A stretch of 64,000 nucleotides of DNA from a virus: positions 12,722 to 76,721 of IMG/VR virus record IMGVR_UViG_3300035142_000030; one strand, written 5' to 3'. How positions within the stretch are numbered: the stretch's first letter is position 1; the number at the start of each line of letters is the position of its first letter. Below the pieces are notes generated by a model. The model had not been told where the DNA came from, searched no databases, and saw nothing but the letters and a program-made list of their open reading frames with translations. The translations under genes and the position numbers were made by a program. Positions 19,264 to 62,298 of the stretch are shown here, one piece after another.

Positions 19264-19355
19264 TGTCCCGTTTAGAGGTATATCCCGAAATAAAAAAAAA
19301 ACTCGTAGAGTTTTGGGGGTACGGGATGGGTTGTGGGAATACCGAGCAAGCAATG

Positions 19356-19445: not shown

Positions 19446-19646
19446 ATGGAATTTATAGTAGAATTAGAAGAAGGTGTTTATTTGGCTACTTGGTCTGGCG
19501 ACCCTGGGCGAACACTAAAGATTGAAAACGCACAAGTATTTGTCCGCGATAAAGATGCTGATAATGCTCTTGTTAGAGCCAGATATTATAGACCATTTAA
19601 GTATGCCAAAGTGCGAAGGCAAAAGGAAGGGTTGCGAAGCAGCTAA
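19446..19646 (+). CDS. Hypothetical cassette protein (MEFIVELEEG...)
   Basis: Likely true start is 19446, since the upstream part of the track ORF is repeat DNA; bounded by 13-bp IR 19424-19436/19660-19672. Confidence 0.6.
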   Translation: MEFIVELEEGVYLATWSGDPGRTLKIENAQVFVRDKDADNALVRARYYRPFKYAKVRRQKEGLRSS

Positions 19647-19664
19647 GGATGGGGGGGATTTTTA

Positions 19665-19760
19665 TGCCTAACGGTTTGGCTATGTTTAGTAGCCTAACCA
19701 CTAACTTTGAAATATTTACTAAATTTGCATAGGCTATTAAATATAGCTTTTGTTATAAAC
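19665..19760. repeat. attC-like site (array 1, site 3)
   Basis: TGCCTAACGGTTTGGCTATGTTTAGTAGCCTA ... TAGGCTATTAAATATAGCTTTTGTTATAAAC. Confidence 0.8.
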
Positions 19761-32819: not shown

Positions 32820-33289
32820 AATAATAAATTTTTATTGGTTATTAATTCTAATATATATTTGTACTGCTCTCAGCGCAACAATTTATAACTACGTATAAAT
32901 TCAAAAACCATGTGATAAGCTCATAAACTTTAAGATTACTCCGTAATCCAGTTTCTGAACTTATACGTTTGAACGTTAGGCTCAATCGCTTGCACTCCTT
33001 CCCTCATTTAAAATTGTATCAATTTGTTATTTTAAATGCTAAAATATCAACAGTTAATCGGATTTAATACGGTTAATTGCTTATATTTAAACAATTTTAA
33101 ATTCCATCCTTACAACCCTCAAAATGCCAAATATTATTTTGCCTAACAATTTGGAAAATAAGCCTTCACACAAGTCCTTTAACGTCTCTTCTATCTGTTG
33201 CATTTTACCTAATATTACAATGCCTAACTAGTAAATAAAGTCCATAAAAATCAAAACTCTGTGTTTATAAAAAATAAAACCACCGCACA

Positions 33290-33586
33290 CTACCAACTGT
33301 TATAGAATCTGATTTTATGCACACCTTTAGGTAAATCTTTAATAAATATCTCATATCCAGAAGAAGCATCGTCATCATATTCTTTATAATGTTTTCCTGC
33401 TTCTAAGTTTATTTCTAATTTTTCATCCAATAAGTATTCTTCTGGATATTCACTGCCAAAATATTCAGCAGTAGCCTTTGGTAAATCTACATCAGCTTCT
33501 AAACAGGCTAATAATACTTTTTTGTGTTTTTGGTAAGTTTCATCCGTATCAGGTATGAATGCTTGTACATGTGTTGACATTCCCAT
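33290..33586 (-). CDS. Hypothetical cassette protein
   Basis: 98 aa ORF in the loop of a degenerate site. Confidence 0.65.
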   Translation of the reverse strand: MGMSTHVQAFIPDTDETYQKHKKVLLACLEADVDLPKATAEYFGSEYPEEYLLDEKLEINLEAGKHYKEYDDDASSGYEIFIKDLPKGVHKIRFYNSW

Positions 33587-35379: not shown

Positions 35380-35545
35380 GCCGTAAATTTTACATACCGC
35401 TAACAAGCGGTCATAGTTAATAAAGCCAATTAAGTTTAGTTCGTTGTAGGTTGCGGTAGTGGGTGGCTTTACTAACCATACCGCATCTACGTTACAGACA
35501 ATTGCCCGCACGGCATTCCGCACGGGCTATCGCTCACAACCCACT

Positions 35546-35902
35546 CTAAATTTTGTTTAGAATTTGTTCCAACGCCCAATACTCTGGATTTGCAAGAGCA
35601 GTAACTACATTATTAATATCACAAATACTAATAATCAGCCAAATACATAAAATGATTGCAAGTATAACAATTGCAATCCAATGTCCAACTTCAGTATCAT
35701 TATCATAGCATTTTTGATAATTTTTAGCAAACCATTTTATGTATCGCACATATGGTATAATTAAGAGAAAAGAAATAATGATTAAGGTAATTCCCACAAA
35801 TGCATCAATAGGTGCTTGCTTAATCATAACTCCCCACAAGTATTCGGTCGTTGTACCAAGCTTACTTGCTAAGCTTTCTAATAATGTTGTTAATTCATTC
35901 AT
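35546..35902 (-). CDS. Membrane protein (cassette)
   Basis: LASKLGTTTEYLWGVMIKQA, two TM segments, NPEYWAL; bounded by a 14-bp IR. Confidence 0.7.
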   Translation of the reverse strand: MNELTTLLESLASKLGTTTEYLWGVMIKQAPIDAFVGITLIIISFLLIIPYVRYIKWFAKNYQKCYDNDTEVGHWIAIVILAIILCIWLIISICDINNVVTALANPEYWALEQILNKI

Positions 35903-36280
35903 TTTAATATAATTTAGTTAAACAAAATTTTCTAATGTCAATTGTCTGTAACAGTCGCCTAAATACAGCATTCGTCGCAGCTTCGTATCAAATTGGTTCA
36001 TATCGTATTGAAACCCTAAGGCAACTATCTGTAACTACTAAATACAAGCCAGCGAGACAAGCTCGCCATCGTGTATTTAGGCGACTGTTAGATTCCATAC
36101 TCCCACGGCATTCCCACAAACCCCGCTACGCCCCACCGCACAAAAACCATCGTATGAAATCTAATGGTACGGCAAGTAGTACCACTCGCTCAATACCATT
36201 TACGTATCTGAATCTTATTACTTCCTCCAACGTACAGAATCTAACTGTCAAGTCAGAGGAAAGTAATTTTAGAACTCATT

Positions 36281-36505
36281 CTAAACAATACGTTTACAGC
36301 TTAATTCCCAATGTACTTGTTCGGCAACTTTTAATCTACGAACTGAACTTTTTCCAGTTTCAGGTAATTTGCCTTCATTTAACCATAATAATATCATTTG
36401 TATAAAGTTGCCTGCTGGCAATTCTACTTTTTGACCTTTACCATCTATATAATAAACTGTATCAGTCAATTCGCTGTAAACTAATTCTTTTTTTTGCTCA
36501 ATCAT
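36281..36505 (-). CDS. Hypothetical protein within hairpin loop
   Basis: 74 aa ORF between inner arm (36242) and right arm (36537-36572). Confidence 0.6.
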   Translation of the reverse strand: MIEQKKELVYSELTDTVYYIDGKGQKVELPAGNFIQMILLWLNEGKLPETGKSSVRRLKVAEQVHWELSCKRIV

Positions 36506-36675
36506 TTCTATATAATTTTATCTGTTAATAAACAATGTTCTAAAATTCCCATCCACTACTTGCCGTACCATTGTAACTCAATTGACAGCTCTCCATCCGC
36601 ACAAGGCTTCCCATCCGCCCCGCAAAATACCAAAGCAATTGAGTTACAACGCTCGGAGTTCATTCGATGTAAAAA

Positions 36676-36930
36676 TTATGAAACACCGAGTTTATGAGCT
36701 TCTTCATCAAATGCAATTTTTATATTTGTAATTTCAGTTTGAATTTCTAATAAAAGTTCATGAAATTCTTGTTGCTTATCTTCAATTTGTTTGTCAGCAA
36801 ATTGCATTTTTGAAATTATGTTCTCCTTATAAGCATAAGCAGAGTTCAAATCATTTTTTAATTTTGTGTGCTTAGCTTTAAGAACATCAAGTCTATTTAA
36901 GTAATTACCATACTGTTCTTGAAAATTCAT
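36676..36930 (-). CDS. Coiled-coil hypothetical protein between outer and inner arms
   Basis: 84 aa ORF. Confidence 0.6.
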   Translation of the reverse strand: MNFQEQYGNYLNRLDVLKAKHTKLKNDLNSAYAYKENIISKMQFADKQIEDKQQEFHELLLEIQTEITNIKIAFDEEAHKLGVS

Positions 36931-37121
36931 AATTTTTACCTTTCTATATTTAAGTTTATAATGTTCGATACGTCACAGCGTACAACTACGTGTAATGCAG
37001 AATTGCTACAATCGAATGATGCCGATTTACGGCTTTACTTTGCCTTGCGGCAAATCGCCGCAACTCAGCATACACTCCGAGCGTTATGCGTAAAAATACC
37101 CGCATCCTAGTTCGCTAACGC

Positions 37122-37217
37122 TCACCCATCCGCATCCTCCCACTTATCAATATACAATTTTAGCTTATAAATAAGTATTCCTATTACAATTCCGATTCCT
37201 ATTAATATTAAATTCAT
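37122..37217 (-). CDS. 31-aa membrane peptide cassette (MNLILIGIGIVIGILIYKLKLYIDKWEDADG)
   Basis: Only ORF within the 16-bp IR 37083-37098/37225-37240. Confidence 0.5.
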   Translation of the reverse strand: MNLILIGIGIVIGILIYKLKLYIDKWEDADG

Positions 37218-37374
37218 ATCCAAATATTTTTACGCATAACACCAGAGAAAATATACCGTCCCGCAGGAGACGTTCTCCAGTATCTGCAAGTTTATATTCC
37301 TAATATTTCTACTCATAACTAAAAAATCATAGCACATTAAAATCAAAACTCTGTGTTTAATAAAATAAAGCCAA

Positions 37375-37725
37375 TTAATATATATTCTTTCTACCCCTGT
37401 CAGCGTGCAATGGTACTAAATGATCACACGAACCGCAAAAATGTTTAGCTTTAGTCTCCCAGTAAATTCCTTCAGAATGTGTATCAAAAAGCGAATTACA
37501 ATTGCTACACATCTCAATATGGTCTGGTAGTAAAGGAAAATGTTCTTGTAAATAATAAATTATTGCAAACGCTTTTTTAGCTGTCATCTTTGGCTGATGC
37601 CCACGCTTAAAAGAAAGTTGTTCAGGTAATTCACCTTGTAAAAAATTGTAAAATTCTTCTATCCATTCAAGGTCTGTATCAATCCTCTGATCATTATTTT
37701 TAAGCAATTTTATTTCATTGTACAT
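37375..37725 (-). CDS. Zn-finger hypothetical protein within hairpin loop
   Basis: CSNC ... CGSC; enclosed by TAAAATAAAGCC/GGCTTTATTTTA IR. Confidence 0.65.
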   Translation of the reverse strand: MYNEIKLLKNNDQRIDTDLEWIEEFYNFLQGELPEQLSFKRGHQPKMTAKKAFAIIYYLQEHFPLLPDHIEMCSNCNSLFDTHSEGIYWETKAKHFCGSCDHLVPLHADRGRKNIY

Positions 37726-37865
37726 AAGGCTTTATTTTTAATTAGTACTAAATTTATAATCATATTTTACCTGTAATTTCATCAAGTTTCAATCAATGTT
37801 TTAATTTTACCGTCCCATATTTTCTCTGGTGTTAGAAAACATGCCGTTTCGAACGGACGCAAAAA

Positions 37866-38147
37866 TCATTTTGCTTTCTTATATTTAGAGCCTTTACTAT
37901 TACAAAAATCACATATTGCATTGTTAGGTTTGTTAGATATACATGAACTGCAAAATTTCCATTTTTGCTCATGTTTTCTAACGGTTTCACGTTCGTTTGA
38001 TATTAAAATTTGATTGATAAAGTCATTCAATTGGACTATAGCGTATTCAACAGACAACATATCTAATGTGTCTTCATCTCCAATTGTATCAAGTCTATCC
38101 ATTAATATCTTACGTATTCCATCAGTATAATCTTTTTTATGTTTCAT
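37866..38147 (-). CDS. Hypothetical protein reading through a repeat arm
   Basis: NERETVRKHE is encoded by outer arm 37970-37992; Cys-rich tail. Confidence 0.55.
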   Translation of the reverse strand: MKHKKDYTDGIRKILMDRLDTIGDEDTLDMLSVEYAIVQLNDFINQILISNERETVRKHEQKWKFCSSCISNKPNNAICDFCNSKGSKYKKAK

Positions 38148-38320
38148 AATATCAAATTTTAATTATTAATACTAATTTAGTTTATCAATTCTCAACGTCA
38201 CGATTTTCTAACCAACGTTTATGCTTAATTAAAGCTATCAAACGATGCTCCGTTAAAGCTTTTCTTGCGTTTCACGCAACCGCTTTAACAAAGCATACAC
38301 GTGAAACCGTTAGAGTGCAT

Positions 38321-38608
38321 TTAATCCAAGTGAATAAGCATTTCTCCCCACGCACTTCTACCTTTCACTTTCGGTAGTGATGTGTAGTGTAGTGTCATTC
38401 CTGTAAATTCACACTCTTTGTTATTTAAACTTTTTTTAACCATCCAGTCTTTTGCTTCTTTCCTTATAATATCATCTTCATTGTTTCGATGCCAGCCCAC
38501 GCTAATTATCAAATTACCAATTCTAATTTTACTAAGTGAAAAACGCACTCTAACAATAGATAAAATCCATTGCTTAAAATGTGCTAATTCGTTACGTAAG
38601 TATTTCAT
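38321..38608 (-). CDS. Hypothetical cassette protein starting inside the repeat
   Basis: MKYLRNELAHFKQWILSIVRVR is homologous to the N-terminus of 18377. Confidence 0.6.
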   Translation of the reverse strand: MKYLRNELAHFKQWILSIVRVRFSLSKIRIGNLIISVGWHRNNEDDIIRKEAKDWMVKKSLNNKECEFTGMTLHYTSLPKVKGRSAWGEMLIHLD

Positions 38609-38764
38609 ATCAATGTTTTTATAAGTTTGAAAATTCAGTTCATTAAATCGCAACGTATCTTATCAGAGCCGTTGCACACAATGCCCCATCTAGGGGACGT
38701 GCGACTCGCTATCGCTCCTGTCGCACTCATTGTGTGCAACAGTTTGGCGTTAGCTTGTAAATAA

Positions 38765-38941
38765 TTATTCGCTCAGTACTTCTAAACTATAAGATGATAC
38801 ATAATCAATCTTTTTACCAACTATTACAACTGCATACGGTATATCATCAGCTCCCCGCACGTATCCATCAATGTATCCAACATCTCCAACCTTAAACATC
38901 ATATGTTGGTATTCTTTAATAATTTTAACTTTTGTCTTCAT
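38765..38941 (-). CDS. 58-aa hypothetical protein (MKTKVKIIKEYQH...GYIDGYVRGADDIPYAVV)
   Basis: Clean ORF between duplicated TGTGCAAC cores; below the track size cutoff. Confidence 0.55.
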   Translation of the reverse strand: MKTKVKIIKEYQHMMFKVGDVGYIDGYVRGADDIPYAVVIVGKKIDYVSSYSLEVLSE

Positions 38942-38976
38942 AATTATTTATTTAGTTATTTGTTAATTTCTGCTTA

Positions 38977-39147
38977 CTAGATGGTGCACAATGTGCAACT
39001 AGCGTTTATGCGTAATTGTAATAGGCAATTTCCAATCTCCCAGTAACTTGCGCCTAAACGTTCCAATATCATTTCAGCTTTCTCAAAGCTCCAACTTTTA
39101 TAACATTGATAAAAGTTCCCTTTATAGGTATACATTATATGAATCAT
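38977..39147 (-). CDS. Hypothetical protein ending in a repeat arm
   Basis: MIHIMYTYKG...LGASYWEIG; tail QLRINASCT is encoded by the arm. Confidence 0.5.
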   Translation of the reverse strand: MIHIMYTYKGNFYQCYKSWSFEKAEMILERLGASYWEIGNCLLQLRINASCTLCTI

Positions 39148-39532
39148 AATTTTATATTTAAAGTTTGTACTAAATTTTAACAATACCCTAAAAATCCTTC
39201 CCATATCTTTCGGAGTGTTATGGCTCAATTTCGCTACGCTCTACGATGACTTCATTTAATTGAGCCATAACGAGACAACGTATGAAGTACAGGCTCAGTG
39301 TACTATATTAATTCTATTTTAATTTATCCGCTCAACTAGAGCATAACTACATATAAGCGTAATACTATGAGCCTTACTTCAAAGCTCTCAGAATATTTCA
39401 CCGATAAAAATCGGCTCATATTCCTACGCTTATACGTTGTCTCGTTAGTAGCAAGCGGGTTCAGTTCTCGTATCAAACATTGTGCGTATTTGAAAGAAAA
39501 AGAAAAGCCCCGCCCGCTTTTGGCAAAGCCAA

Positions 39533-40147
39533 TTAGGATAAAGCTGCAAGTAGTTCAGTTACCCACTTATTTGAATCTTCACATCTTTTCAATTCTGCAT
39601 TGTGTTCTTTTGTGTGGTATTCAATATCCCAGTTGGCATCTGCAATCATATCCTTTCTAATATCAGCAGCATTTATGTTTTCTAATTGAGAATCTATCTT
39701 GCTTAACTCATCATCGTGGTACTTTGTGTCTCCATCGTGGTCAATAGTTGTCACTATCTGTTCAATCATAAATTTAGCAATTCCTTCGTGGTCTTTTGTT
39801 GGTGGTTTGAAATCCCTTGCTTTAATTAAAAACTCATCAAGTTTAACCCTTGCTTTTTTTATTTCCTTAATTCTTTCGGTGTGATAGGTTCTACTTTCTT
39901 TTATCTGTTTTTTGCGAGAGGCAATTATTTCAGAATCGGTAAGTTTCTCAGCTTGATTTAATTTTTCATTAGCTGTTTTTAACGCTTTAATATGGTAATC
40001 GCTCGGCGTTCTTGGCACGTACTCTTTATTCATACTTTCATCTCTCATATGTATAGTTGCTCCAAAAGCTCTCATACATTGTTTTGCAAAATCTTGGAAT
40101 GTTTCGGTTGTGCCGTCAATAATTCCTGCTGTGTAACCTGTTGGCAT
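39533..40147 (-). CDS. Conserved phage hypothetical protein (MPTGYTA-type)
   Basis: 204 aa helical; MPTGYTAGI..TFQDFA..CMRAFGA. Confidence 0.7.
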   Translation of the reverse strand: MPTGYTAGIIDGTTETFQDFAKQCMRAFGATIHMRDESMNKEYVPRTPSDYHIKALKTANEKLNQAEKLTDSEIIASRKKQIKESRTYHTERIKEIKKARVKLDEFLIKARDFKPPTKDHEGIAKFMIEQIVTTIDHDGDTKYHDDELSKIDSQLENINAADIRKDMIADANWDIEYHTKEHNAELKRCEDSNKWVTELLAALS

Positions 40148-45859: not shown

Positions 45860-47040
45860 TTAATAGTTAATTTTAGTTGATTTAAAGGCCTGTATTTAAT
45901 CGTACAGGCTTTTTTAATATAATATACCTCATAGGATATAAAATAGCCTTAAAAGCCTTAAATTATATCTTTTCGGGTATAATTACACGCATAAACTAGG
46001 AATTAACAATAATTATAACTATATTTGTAACTCTATTAGTAATAGTACCCAGAACCAAATAACAATTAATATGAATTAACGAGATGTAGACCGGCCTGGC
46101 GATAAATCCAGAAGAACACACAAGAAAAGGAATTATAAAAACAAGTGTTAAACTTATTTTTATTGTACAAATAGCCTGGTTTAAATTAGATCAGGTTATT
46201 TTTTATGCTTAAAGATTAAGTTTATTAAGTCTAAATAAACGTTAAAAGCCTAGATATTAAGATTTAAACCCTCTGAGAATTGAATATTTGAAACGCTCAT
46301 GCACTATGATACTGTACAGATTACTCTCAAGGACTTAAATATTAAGAACTTAAACAAATAACACGCATAAACCATAAATCAAACATAAAATCCTTTCAAG
46401 GATATTACATATATAAGAAAGAGACAATAACAAAAAAAAACATCAATATAATAAATAATAAATACCAGCAAACTATTTAACAATTATTATATATTTCTGT
46501 TTGCTGGATAGAATAGAGTAAGTATTTGGACAGGAAATAGATATAAATAGTATTTTAACTCCGTTAGAATTGGATATTCATATCTATTGTGTAATATGAT
46601 AGATGATATTATAAAGAATCTGTATTAAATAGATAGAATATAGTGTTATTTCAGCTAAAATATACCTTTTTGACTCACATTTTTAGTTAAAATATCATAT
46701 TTAATAATCAGGCACTTATATAATTTTGGTCTCAGTTCCACACAGCGCGAAGACCAACTTTTGAAGATTTAATATACCTCAGTTATTATCTTAGATATAT
46801 AGAGAGGATTTTAACAGGATATTAGTATTATTAAAGAATGGGCAAGCTCATCAACTAATAATATATAGCATACTACTATGTTATACCAAGTGTTTCAAAA
46901 TGGAACACTTTTAGGTAAAATAAACCCAACCTATTTTTTAGGTTGGGAACAAAAAAGGCTGTAAGGCTTATAAATACTAAAGAATTGTGAAAAACGATAA
47001 ATTGATTATTTGTCCAATAATTAGTATTTTGTTAATATGA
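45860..47040. other. Long AT-rich non-coding region (candidate origin or genome-end region)
   Basis: No ORF of 60 aa or more; terminator-like hairpins ~45886 and ~46172; repeated ACGCATAAA. Confidence 0.4.
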
Positions 47041-47050
47041 TTATGAGACA

Positions 47051-47647
47051 TTATAGCACATCAGGCTTGAACTCAAAGATATATGCTTTATGCCTAGTTT
47101 CATCTTTTAAATATCGATTAATTGTTTTGCGATCTACACCGAAATGTTTAGCCGCATCGACAACAGAATCAAACTGTAATTGTTCCCTGGTTTGTATGTG
47201 TGTGGTTAATATAGGTTTTTTCTTTGCATTTGACATTTTTATGCGTGTTTCAAGGTTGTGCGGAGGTTTTATTTTGCCTTTCCAATAACTATTCCTTTGT
47301 CCTGTCTGAAAGGATTTTAATATGTTTTCGCTATGAGTTACCCACTCTAAGTTAGATATATGATTATTTAACTTATCGTGGTCAATATGGTTAACCTCTT
47401 TCTTATATTTATTGTCGCTATATCCCTTGAAAGTGATTAATACGAGCCTATGAGCGAAGAATATCTTTGTGCGTGGTTTATCTCTGTTCTCTTCTGTCTT
47501 CTCTTGCGTAAGATGGTATAATATATAGCCACAACTATTTAGTTGAGGTTTTAAGAATCTTTGCTTTCTGATAGAATACACATCACCGTTTTCATATATA
47601 TAATATAAGTTTTCAAATCCTGGTAACATTATTGTTTTTCTTTTCAT
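47051..47647 (-). CDS. NUMOD4-HNH homing endonuclease with NUMOD3/NUMOD1-like tail
   Basis: GFENLYYIYENGDV, HRLV, VNHIDHDKLNNHISNLEWVT, FDSVVDAAKHFG. Confidence 0.9.
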   Translation of the reverse strand: MKRKTIMLPGFENLYYIYENGDVYSIRKQRFLKPQLNSCGYILYHLTQEKTEENRDKPRTKIFFAHRLVLITFKGYSDNKYKKEVNHIDHDKLNNHISNLEWVTHSENILKSFQTGQRNSYWKGKIKPPHNLETRIKMSNAKKKPILTTHIQTREQLQFDSVVDAAKHFGVDRKTINRYLKDETRHKAYIFEFKPDVL

Positions 47648-48709: not shown

Positions 48710-49105
48710 ATGAAACACGTAATAGAATTACTTACAGAACAATTAGAATTGATTAGTGACGAAATAAGATATGCAGAAGGTGAAGAACTGAAACAGTTAG
48801 ACTGCAGAAACACAGAAATAGGGACTGCTCTTAAAATACTGCAGTTAGTGAGCGGTGTAAATACGGAGAACGAACAAGCCTTACCTATACATATTGTTAG
48901 GGTTTGTGCTTGGGAGGATGCTGCAGACGAGGATAAAGTACCATTTTTAGAAAAAGCTGCAGAACTTGCAGGTGATTCAATGTTTTGTACGCGCGTTTGG
49001 AGTGCGTGGGGAGTTGGAACTATGAGCGAGAACGACTTTGTTGATGCTGCAGATGATGATGATTACGTATACGAAATAGCAAAAGCGATTTGGGAGGGGT
49101 ATTAA
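48710..49105 (+). CDS. Hypothetical cassette protein reading through a repeat arm
   Basis: QALPIHIVRVC is encoded by the arm; C-terminal domain CTRVWSAWGVGTMSENDF. Confidence 0.6.
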   Translation: MKHVIELLTEQLELISDEIRYAEGEELKQLDCRNTEIGTALKILQLVSGVNTENEQALPIHIVRVCAWEDAADEDKVPFLEKAAELAGDSMFCTRVWSAWGVGTMSENDFVDAADDDDYVYEIAKAIWEGY

Positions 49106-49255
49106 CCCTAACGCCTTAAAGCGTAAACTCCGTTACATGGAGAACGTAGTTCGGGAATGTAACGAGTTTAAAATGCTGTAATGGAGTTTACGCATAGTTA
49201 CAAACCGTGCCAATGGCACAAAGATTATTAGAATGTTGAACTTAAAATAAATTTT

Positions 49256-49405
49256 ATGAAACGTTTATGTAAAATGAAACCATATTATGTAATACCAAGA
49301 GTATTTTATATATATGCTGGCTATACTGGATTAGATAATGGATTAGCAATAGGTTGGCTTGGCAGAATGTTTATTATAATTATTCCTGTTAATGAAAGGG
49401 AATAA
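49256..49405 (+). CDS. 49-aa hypothetical peptide between inner and outer arms
   Basis: MKRLCKMKPYYVIPRVFYIYAG...LAIGWLGRMFIIII. Confidence 0.45.
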   Translation: MKRLCKMKPYYVIPRVFYIYAGYTGLDNGLAIGWLGRMFIIIIPVNERE

Positions 49406-49744
49406 AATTTATGCATTTTAGCTTTAAGGCGTTACAAAACCATAGGCAAACAGTGGAAACGGTGAGCGAAGCGAATAAGTTTCGTTTGCCGTGCCTCGAT
49501 GGCATGGTTTTGTAACGTACGTGTATACGCCTGTTGGTATGATTATTAATAGTATAAACTTAAATTAATAAATAATAAAATTACGTAAATTCGCAAAAAT
49601 AATAAAGACAACGAAAACAGATTTGCAGAAATGATAATACCCAGAAAAGATATTGATATAATAATTAAGAGACAAAGATCAATATTATAACAAAGTGTTA
49701 ATCAAAAATTGAATGAATAATAAACGTATTAAATATATAATATT

Positions 49745-61461: not shown

Positions 61462-61536
61462 GGCTCTGTGGTGGACGCGGCAATACACAACGGTTTTAAG
61501 CACCGTCTTTCGCGGGTTGGAGTCCCGCCAGAGCTA
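61462..61536 (+). tRNA. tRNA-Leu(TAA), short variable loop
   Basis: GGCTCTG/CAGAGCT acceptor; ACGGT-TTTAAGC-ACCGT. Confidence 0.75.
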
Positions 61537-61540
61537 CTAA

Positions 61541-61615
61541 GCCCATATGGCGGACGCGGGAATACGCGATAGTCTTAGGAACTATTTTTCACAGGTTCGA
61601 GTCCTGTTATGGGCA
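61541..61615 (+). tRNA. tRNA-Leu(TAG), short variable loop
   Basis: GCCCATA/TATGGGC acceptor; ATAGT-CTTAGGA-ACTAT; GGTTCGAGTCC. Confidence 0.85.
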
Positions 61616-61619
61616 CAAT

Positions 61620-61703
61620 GGAAGGATCGACAGCGGCCTGTCAGGGAGTCTTGAAAACTCTTATGCGATGTAACAGTTGGGGGATCGACACCTCATCCTT
61701 CCG
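61620..61703 (+). tRNA. tRNA-Ser(TGA)
   Basis: GGAAGGA/TCCTTCC acceptor, G discriminator, CTTGAAA loop, long variable region. Confidence 0.7.
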
Positions 61704-61709
61704 CAATTA

Positions 61710-61776
61710 GGGGTAGAACGGGTGGAAGCCTGGTCTGTAAAACCATTGCTCTGAAGTTCGATACTTCACTACCCCA
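61710..61776 (+). tRNA. tRNA-Tyr(GTA), atypical (short D arm)
   Basis: GGGGTAG/CTACCCC acceptor; TGGT-CTGTAAA-ACCA. Confidence 0.55.
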
Positions 61777-61780
61777 CAAA

Positions 61781-61865
61781 GGAAGATTGACTGAAAGGTA
61801 AGGTGCTGGTTTGCTAAACCAAGGCTAGGGTAATACCTAAACAGGCTCGATACCTGTATCTTCCG
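61781..61865 (+). tRNA. tRNA-Ser(GCT)
   Basis: GGAAGAT/ATCTTCC acceptor; TTGCTAA loop; long variable arm. Confidence 0.8.
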
Positions 61866-61870
61866 CAAAT

Positions 61871-61938
61871 AGATGTGAGCCAAGGTGGTGATGTAGCCTC
61901 CAAAACTACAGAAGAGAGTTCGATCCTCGTACGGAGTA
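61871..61938 (+). tRNA. tRNA-Trp(CCA), degenerate acceptor (possible pseudogene)
   Basis: GTAG-C-CTCCAAA-A-CTAC anticodon arm; GAG-TTCGATC-CTC T-arm. Confidence 0.45.
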
Positions 61939-61943
61939 CAAAT

Positions 61944-62014
61944 TGCCCTATAGAATAATGGTAGTTCATCTGACTTTGGATCAGATAGTTCCAGTTCAAA
62001 TCTGGATAGGGCAT
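61944..62014 (+). tRNA. tRNA-Gln(TTG)
   Basis: TGCCCTA/TAGGGCA acceptor; TCTGA-CTTTGGA-TCAGA. Confidence 0.85.
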
Positions 62015-62056
62015 CAAAATAATTTTTATTAATTTTTATTATTAAATAATTTTTTG

Positions 62057-62219
62057 TATATTTGTAAAATACTTTAAAGGATTATGATTTCATTAGGTAG
62101 AAAAAATATGGTTAATATTGATCGTGGAGCAACGCTAAACGAACAGGAGGATTTATTTGTCTAAATGAATTAAATAAAAAGACTAAGAGCCCTCCAAGAA
62201 ATTGAGAGGGCTCTTTTAT
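62057..62219 (+). promoter_or_regulatory. Promoter plus leader peptide (62084-62164) and terminator before second tRNA pair
   Basis: TATATTTG; MISLGRKNMVNIDRGATLNEQEDLFV; AAGAGCCCTC/GAGGGCTCTT plus T-run; GGAGG/CCTCC alternative pairing. Confidence 0.55.
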
Positions 62220-62292
62220 TGGCGCATAGTATAATTGGTAAGTACGCAAGGCTGATGCCCCTGAAATCTAGGTTCAATCCCTAGTGTGCCAA
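62220..62292 (+). tRNA. tRNA with GAT anticodon (Ile), atypical body
   Basis: TGGCGCA/TGTGCCA acceptor; CTGATGC loop; CTAGG-TTCAATC-CCTAG. Confidence 0.6.
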
Positions 62293-62298
62293 CAAAAC

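Follow-up and report, generated by a model that had tools for sequence, protein, structure and literature searches.

Whole genes in the loops of attC-like hairpins in a probable integron-like cassette array of a phage genome

Can the hairpin of a folded recombination site hold a whole gene and, if so, how did the gene come to lie there? The question is raised by a stretch of 64,000 nucleotides (nt), hereafter called the window, which corresponds to bases 12722-76721 of the complete 76.7-kb IMG/VR phage record IMGVR_UViG_3300035142_000030, a genome with direct terminal repeats. The window has a G+C content of about 30% and from 29.5 to 45 kb it carries small genes on the minus strand, most of them without a Pfam or PHROG family (positions are those of the window). 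In this region, a run of small genes of about 4 kb is divided into modules by integron-like sites, and several whole genes lie in hairpin loops. On balance, and with moderate confidence, we read the stretch as part of an integron-like cassette array without a recombinase, comparable to the clusters of attC sites lacking an integrase (CALINs), in which existing hairpin sites took up genes in their apical loops.

The region 35400-39500 was scanned for exact inverted repeats with arms no more than 1.2 kb apart, and 200 dinucleotide-preserving shuffles served as control. It contained 16 perfect inverted repeats of at least 12 nt (12-19 nt), against a mean of 0.55 in the shuffles, and 10 of at least 14 nt, against a mean of 0.04. 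In 9 of the 16 pairs the outer ends are GTT and AAC, one at each side, and in two more these triplets lie within 2 nt of the ends. The core comprises four nucleotides, TAAC or GTTA, and adjacent arms overlap by exactly this tetranucleotide, as in 37225-37240 with 37237-37254 and in 37817-37834 with 37831-37843. Arm sequences are unique to each pair, have no third copies within the window and share only the 4-nt core, and the 7-nt consensus RYYYAAC/GTTRRRY is only loosely matched by the sites of the window. Across 659 kb of loci from other phages and metagenomes, no core-ended perfect repeat of at least 14 nt was found, and GenBank phages contained no DNA similar to 35400-39500. A generic scan for AAC..GTT folds was too unspecific for site definition.

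The arms end abruptly: past each end, the next six positions show only random pairing, and G-T is not over-represented among the first mismatches. Likewise, no excess of wobble pairs was detected within the arms, which are purely Watson-Crick. Such sharp Watson-Crick arms fit DNA copying or DNA recombination. Bulged stems were restricted to the small near hairpins at 35448-35490, 36029-36090 and 49110-49188.

The sites have the form x'-TAAC-y, in which the left arm pairs with GTTA-x on one side and the right arm with y'-GTTA on the other, perfectly and over 9-15 nt beyond the core. Every segment between two cores is closed by its own complementary arms, and two polarities alternate. We designate as X the segments GTTA-x..x'-TAAC, which correspond to the position of integron cargo because the core site opening a cassette complements the inverse core of its own attC, and as Y the segments TAAC-y..y'-GTTA, which correspond to a folded attC with its terminal loop. 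Read from position 38314 down in gene sense (minus strand), the order of segments is k, j, i, h, g, an empty X, f, an empty X, e, an X of about 68 nt, b and a (Table 1). Polarity is identical when read on either strand, and we reason that crossover at the cores, whether as insertion, excision or inversion, cannot alter it. Therefore, a gene located in Y is not explained away by strand or orientation. When the long-range stems were evaluated as single-stranded DNA, all were favourable (-5 to -15 kcal/mol) despite their gene-sized loops, and a single strand could form a series of hairpins that abut one another and alternate in polarity.

In the attC sites of known integrons the loop is short and non-coding. 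In this phage, genes occupy not only the cargo position (X) but also that of the attC loop (Y). At least four Y loops have grown to 306-562 nt and carry a promoter together with a gene or with the front of one: the front half of ORF93 (ORF, open reading frame) is in the loop of 306 nt, gene74 in that of 374 nt, gene84 in that of 414 nt and gene116 in that of 562 nt. Conversely, little or no content is left in several X segments (0, 27, 68 and 126 nt).

An earlier note on this DNA, written from the letters alone, had distributed the genes over three different slots, namely between sites, inside the hairpin loop, and between outer and inner arms. All the ORFs and arm pairs that it named were found in place, although the arrangement is better described by two polarities plus duplicated half-sites, the second and third slots being one class. 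The genes placed between sites, 35546-35902 and 37122-37217, are both enclosed by perfect arm pairs of X polarity (GTTACAGACAATTG/CAATTGTCTGTAAC and GTTATGCGTAAAAATA/TATTTTTACGCATAAC, respectively). With respect to the three genes assigned to loops, 37375-37725 and 36281-36505 do lie within 18-bp perfect pairs, the latter with AAT/ATT at its core, but 33290-33586 does not, since its sole flanking repeat is AT-rich, 34 nt long and matches at 74%, and the arm that the paralogous segment behind this gene would need is absent. The arrangement between outer and inner arms is real for 36676-36930, 38765-38941 and 49256-49405, but it does not form a separate class because duplicated half-sites give one arm a near and a far partner. 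Duplicated half-sites are present at 36022-36046, where the 5' half-site of hairpin b has a diverged second copy that includes its x' part, and at 36147-36165. A tandem duplication of 83 nt suspected in 35930-36270 was rejected, as only short half-site copies were in common.

The gene-bearing hairpins differ in detail. In pair e the triplets AAC/GTT are replaced by AAT/ATT (36163-36165 and 36570-36572), so that pairing is kept and the conserved triplet is lost on both sides. Reading this pair as an X slot with a lost core was considered and rejected, since the Y reading with an AAT/ATT core fits better. The enclosed gene74 is also tightly bracketed by an imperfect ..TAGAAC/GTTCTA.. pair (36255-36275 and 36537-36557). 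Hairpin f abuts e and g through empty X slots, which read GTTAC and GTTGTAAC in gene sense, GTTGTAAC being the one between g and f. The contiguous 35-nt arm of hairpin g pairs with three pieces (37074-37085, 37012-37020 and 36926-36939) separated by inserts of 53 and 71 nt, and both the start and the stop codon of gene84 fall within its innermost 14-bp pair. No sequence homologues of gene84 were found, and the atlas look-alikes of gene84 and gene58 are leads only. Gene58 lies between the near and the far partner of arm 38671-38693. The same holds on the plus strand, where arm 49109-49122 forms a near imperfect hairpin (to 49188) and has a far perfect partner at 49421-49434, with ORF 49256-49405 between them. 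Half-sites duplicated beside genes would have provided such a near and a far partner for one arm.

There is a fourth situation, which the earlier note had missed: ORF93 (37866-38147) reads through a y'-GTTA-x site (37970-37992). Codons 1-52 of ORF93 lie in the loop of hairpin k, together with a promoter region and a local hairpin. The 3' arm and the core of this hairpin are translated, and X slot j contains codons 58-93, which encode a zinc-ribbon-like C-terminal tail, and a small terminator-like hairpin. The single homologue of ORF93 (P0096) has a different N-terminus; the similarity begins at about residue 50, a few codons ahead of the arm, and covers the C-terminal part.

Table 1. Segments of the array and related features of the window (X and Y, polarity of the segment)
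Feature	Position	Strand	Description
X slot a	35491-35952	-	Arms 35491-35504 and 35939-35952, 14 bp perfect, GTTA..TAAC; content 434 nt
Content of X slot a	35546-35902	-	gene118, membrane protein, phrog_1486; with G-rich terminator-like hairpin tail
Y hairpin b	35949-36090		Arms 35949-35967 and 36072-36090, 19 bp perfect; loop 104 nt
X between b and e			From the gene-sense map; about 68 nt, G-rich
Y pair e	36163-36572	-	18 bp perfect; loop 374 nt; encloses gene74 (36281-36505)
Y hairpin f	36571-36649		10-14 bp; G-rich loop of 51 nt
Y hairpin g	36648-37085	-	Contiguous 35-nt arm 36648-36682; 414 nt; holds gene84 (36676-36930)
X slot h	37083-37240	-	16 bp perfect; content 126 nt: hydrophobic ORF of 31 codons (37122-37217) and G-rich tail
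Y hairpin i	37237-37834	-	18 bp perfect TAAC..GTTA pair; loop 562 nt
Content of Y hairpin i		-	Promoter region, gene116 (37375-37725) and 3' module (37225-37374)
X slot j	37831-37982	-	13 bp perfect; 126 nt
Y hairpin k	37977-38314	-	13-16 bp perfect; loop 306 nt
gene58 unit	38671-38999	-	Arm 38671-38693; near partner 38728-38740 (13 bp perfect), far partner 38977-38999 (83% over 23 nt)
X hairpin, chain end	39217-39271		Content 27 nt; TAAC shared with the next Y hairpin
Y hairpin, chain end	39268-39447		16 bp; loop 148 nt
Paralogue of 37060-37375	32930-33290	-	Downstream of gene 33290-33586; same 3' module, GTTA core, X-slot start and next TAAC site; no far arm
Plus-strand array unit	49109-49517	+	Same syntax as the minus-strand array
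X hairpin	49430-49517	+	Follows far arm 49421-49434

Related phage arrays provide a reference for this arrangement. For gene116, 94 protein homologues were obtained and about 150 loci were fetched, most of which had no surrounding repeat. In four independent contexts (L005/L076, L009/L010, L098 and L128/L129), the homologue lay between perfect 9-bp GTTA..TAAC arms beside imperfect hairpins; none among the loci examined was inside an AAC..GTT pair (Y), and none of the six homologues in GTDB genomes was in a cassette. Gene74 belongs to a real family with 34 representatives, and its homologue in loci L151 and L152 occupies an X slot (GTTGGCAGCAGTAAC..GTTATTGCTGCCAAC), never Y. Both families are mostly not in cassettes and are found in standard cassettes in few genomes. 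Single-protein scans of viral contigs for gene116 and gene74 gave no match, whereas alignment queries did find homologues. The protein of the gene74 cassette (36281-36505, 74 residues) also matches repeated domains of giant proteins, for example 15 stretches in the 4471-residue P0098.

Locus L009 contains nine genes in X, with GTT..AAC arms of 9-16 bp, and seven aligned members of one family of AAC..GTT hairpins of about 125 nt between the genes, without genes in the hairpins. In L009 and in L151/L152, genes are found only in X and the Y loops, of 50-130 nt, are non-coding. The latter two loci, which belong to unrelated phage contigs (positions 2411-2763 in both), share a block of about 350 nt, composed of a hairpin and a gene, at 92% identity; the block starts and ends at AAC(GG) and its flanks are unrelated. 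This is direct evidence that in this family of phage arrays a hairpin and the gene following it are swapped as a unit at AAC cores. The hairpin precedes its own gene and the gene-sense strand of the sites is G-rich, an order in agreement with the purine-rich bottom strand of attC (PMC5027507). Among the other loci, L070, which carries a relative of the flank gene 39533-40147, showed ordinary small genes and no repeat chain in its 1 kb, and the core-ended 12-mers of L007, which are located in coding DNA, were discarded as chance-like.

How the genes came to lie in the loops is suggested by hairpin i. An 8-nt direct repeat, ACCGTCCC, stands at 37255-37262 and at 37809-37816, immediately inside both arms, and when the intervening 554 nt are subtracted an 18-bp perfect hairpin with an 8-nt loop is left. 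The chance of an 8/8 match at that exact position among about 15 pairs is around 2 in 10,000. Gene116 may have been inserted into an existing 8-nt hairpin loop with duplication of the loop, and an extruded hairpin cut at both stem-loop junctions and filled in around the inserted fragment would yield an exact loop duplication.

The 150 nt located 3' of gene116 are about 80% identical to the DNA 3' of the unrelated gene 33290-33586, and the paralogy, of about 300 nt, runs on through the i' arm, the GTTA core, the X-slot start and the next TAAC site. It follows that one 3' scaffold stands behind two different genes and that segments of the array have been duplicated. The 21-mer that the earlier note had reported downstream of both genes exists and is part of this paralogy. 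As a hairpin site, the 3' module was rejected, since it folds no better than shuffles. In the paralogue the arm has diverged and lacks a far partner, while the arms of hairpin i are still complementary at 18 of 18 positions; that they have stayed perfect as the module diverged to about 80% points to maintained pairing. The proposal that a scaffold captures unrelated genes is supported in part by the 3' module behind two unrelated genes, by the X-slot homologues and by the 8-nt repeat, but no empty scaffold was found.

Several observations weigh against the reading of the stretch as a CALIN-like array with genes inserted in its hairpins. No tyrosine, serine or Y1-HUH recombinase was identified in the window or in the whole 76.7-kb phage, and PF00589 had no match at E ≤ 1 in the complete phage nor in four related records. 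Contigs of the source sample showed no joints or structural variants, a comparison that does not address rare forms, and only the source run contains the stretch. The empty i hairpin (TAACACCAGAGAAAATAT-ACCGTCCC-ATATTTTCTCTGGTGTTA) and the shared 20-mer had no exact match in viral contigs, both being weak tests, and neither an exchange in this array itself nor a close relative of the phage was found. ORFs 37122-37217 and 49256-49405 are without support as genes. Moreover, pairs e, g, i and k are perfect, with no extrahelical bases and no unpaired spacer, unlike attC sites, and the gene-holding loops, of 306-562 nt, exceed every recorded attC (57-141 bp; PMC5027507) by a factor of 3-4. Finally, the insertion into a loop rests on one 8-nt repeat, and the homology of the module crosses its boundary and leaves the order of events uncertain: either the insertion predates the paralogue or the 8-mer arose in some other way.

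The array is at most CALIN-like, since no match was found to an integron integrase (IntI), which in complete integrons stands beside the array together with attI. We class the gene-bearing hairpins as working like an integron array and not as canonical attC sites. As in integrons and CALINs, AAC/GTT cores stand at the base of folded sites and the cassette ends complement the next site; the arms, however, extend 9-15 nt past the core, the crossover point is in mid-stem, and the genes are on the G-rich, bottom-like strand, so that the hairpin precedes the gene. CALINs have been reported in virulent phages and are used by IntI1, as observed with an attC x attI conjugation assay (Qi et al., 2023; PMC9892861). 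Like those phage CALINs, this phage has no integrase and its cargo consists of small accessory genes, and units are exchanged at the cores between related phage contigs. In this phage, the exchange of units at the AAC cores may be the work of a tyrosine recombinase that recognises structure and comes from the host or from another element.

A bolder version of this scheme would make the hairpins landing pads, in which a segment with a promoter and a gene is captured in the apical loop and the loop is duplicated, the segment being then flanked by ready recombination arms. We advance it tentatively and hold it to be rather unlikely. If true, this route would turn ordinary phage genes into mobile cassettes and would answer how integron-type cassettes are born.

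The far perfect arms could also be passive scars, produced when template switches or aborted recombination at GTT/AAC microhomology left an inverted copy with no present function. Copies that are perfect and sharp-edged would be expected in that case, and the half-site duplications in and beside hairpin b, together with comparable inverted copies near an HNH endonuclease gene outside the arrays, are in line with it. Nevertheless, ten events in 4 kb that follow one alternating syntax and abut at the cores are hard to obtain without selection or a dedicated mechanism, and the arms of hairpin i stayed perfect while the paralogous module diverged. We regard such an origin as improbable. As for the HNH gene itself (47051-47647), its inside is linked to an intergenic stretch by three collinear perfect inverted copies of 12-13 nt (46360-46423 versus 47238-47408, paired as 46360/47249, 46386/47319 and 46411/47408), the first of which begins AAC..GTT.

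Little credit can be given to an action of the arms in RNA, in which a 5'-3' stem would close each cistron of a long minus-strand transcript, either as a target of RNase III cleavage or as protection of the mRNA ends, and in gene84 would also hide the start codon. All genes of the stretch are on one strand, the arms bracket cistrons, and the stems would presumably be stable as RNA too. In addition, the start and stop codons of gene84 fall within its 14-bp pair, and at gene ends terminator-like hairpins stand before T-rich arms (5 found versus 1.5 expected). On the other hand, an RNA model gives no role to the TAAC/GTTA cores in which the arms end or to the strictly alternating polarity, neither G-U pairs nor frayed ends occur, the likely promoter of an enclosed gene is in some cases downstream of the far arm, and in relatives the same syntax marks points of DNA exchange. 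Nor was there a match in Rfam, which at the gathering score returned only tRNAs outside the stretch of small genes and at E ≤ 5 two further matches at chance level. A role in RNA might coexist with recombination, and the G-rich hairpin with its T-rich arm is probably also a terminator. The tRNA genes, five to six in number, are located at 61462-62293 (Leu-TAA, Leu-TAG, Ser-TGA, Gln-TTG, Ile-GAT and one detected only by Rfam at 61781-61865).

The G-rich tails form a recurrent feature of the cassette ends, where, in gene sense, 40-60 nt of this kind precede x'-TAAC. They are present in the window at 35501-35550, 36086-36160, 37096-37160, 19296-19355, 19611-19665 and 48971-49040, and in L098 at 2300-2330 and 2900-2925. 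The tail at 19315-19345, which fits a G-quadruplex pattern, is homologous to that at 36100-36140. Some of the tails form a terminator-like hairpin with the T-rich arm behind it.

Just as doubtful as an action in RNA is the possibility that the sites are double-stranded, of about 28 bp, and serve a Xer-type recombinase of the host, which would move or invert modules with no need for hairpin folding. In the pdif modules of Acinetobacter plasmids, sites alternate, modules are flanked by inverted half-sites and any segment can hold genes, and the pdif arms follow the XerC/XerD consensus, with conserved 11-bp arms around a 6-bp spacer. The sites of the window do alternate in inverted orientation, measure 27-30 bp and leave genes in both kinds of segment. 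Unlike pdif, however, only 4 nt are common to all of them and no two arm pairs have the same sequence. Lacking an arm consensus, they could not all be bound by one sequence-specific protein, and the related arrays have typical folded attC-like sites. A transposon or a miniature inverted-repeat transposable element, with shared terminal repeats and a target duplication at every copy, was discarded, as no transposase was found in the phage, the arms differ between units and a direct repeat is present only at hairpin i.

Promoter-early stem-loop (PeSL) cassettes, which shuffle genes in T4-type phages, have one conserved motif and act by homology. The array resembles them in its short structured motifs between small accessory genes within a plastic region of the phage, and differs from them in its long-range arms, which are unique and bounded by cores. 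Next to the plus-strand array (48.1-50.2 kb) lies a gene for a C-5 cytosine DNA methyltransferase (PF00145, 50231-51211), and methyltransferases are likewise among the phage cassettes of Qi et al. (2023; PMC9892861).

As far as the searched literature shows, three features are new: the chain of perfect arm pairs that share their cores, the whole promoter-gene units in the position of the attC loop, and the one insertion footprint. Ordinary phage gene families are found inside the hairpin of such a site, in one case with that footprint. Sites of this kind will be missed by attC finders limited to about 150 nt. The array bears on the origin of the integron cassette, in which a gene and a folded recombination site are brought together; its link with the creation of cassettes is one that we infer. 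If the hairpins are active, the site can tolerate a loop of 300-560 nt and either arc of a cassette circle can carry cargo, and cassettes may be made in phages.

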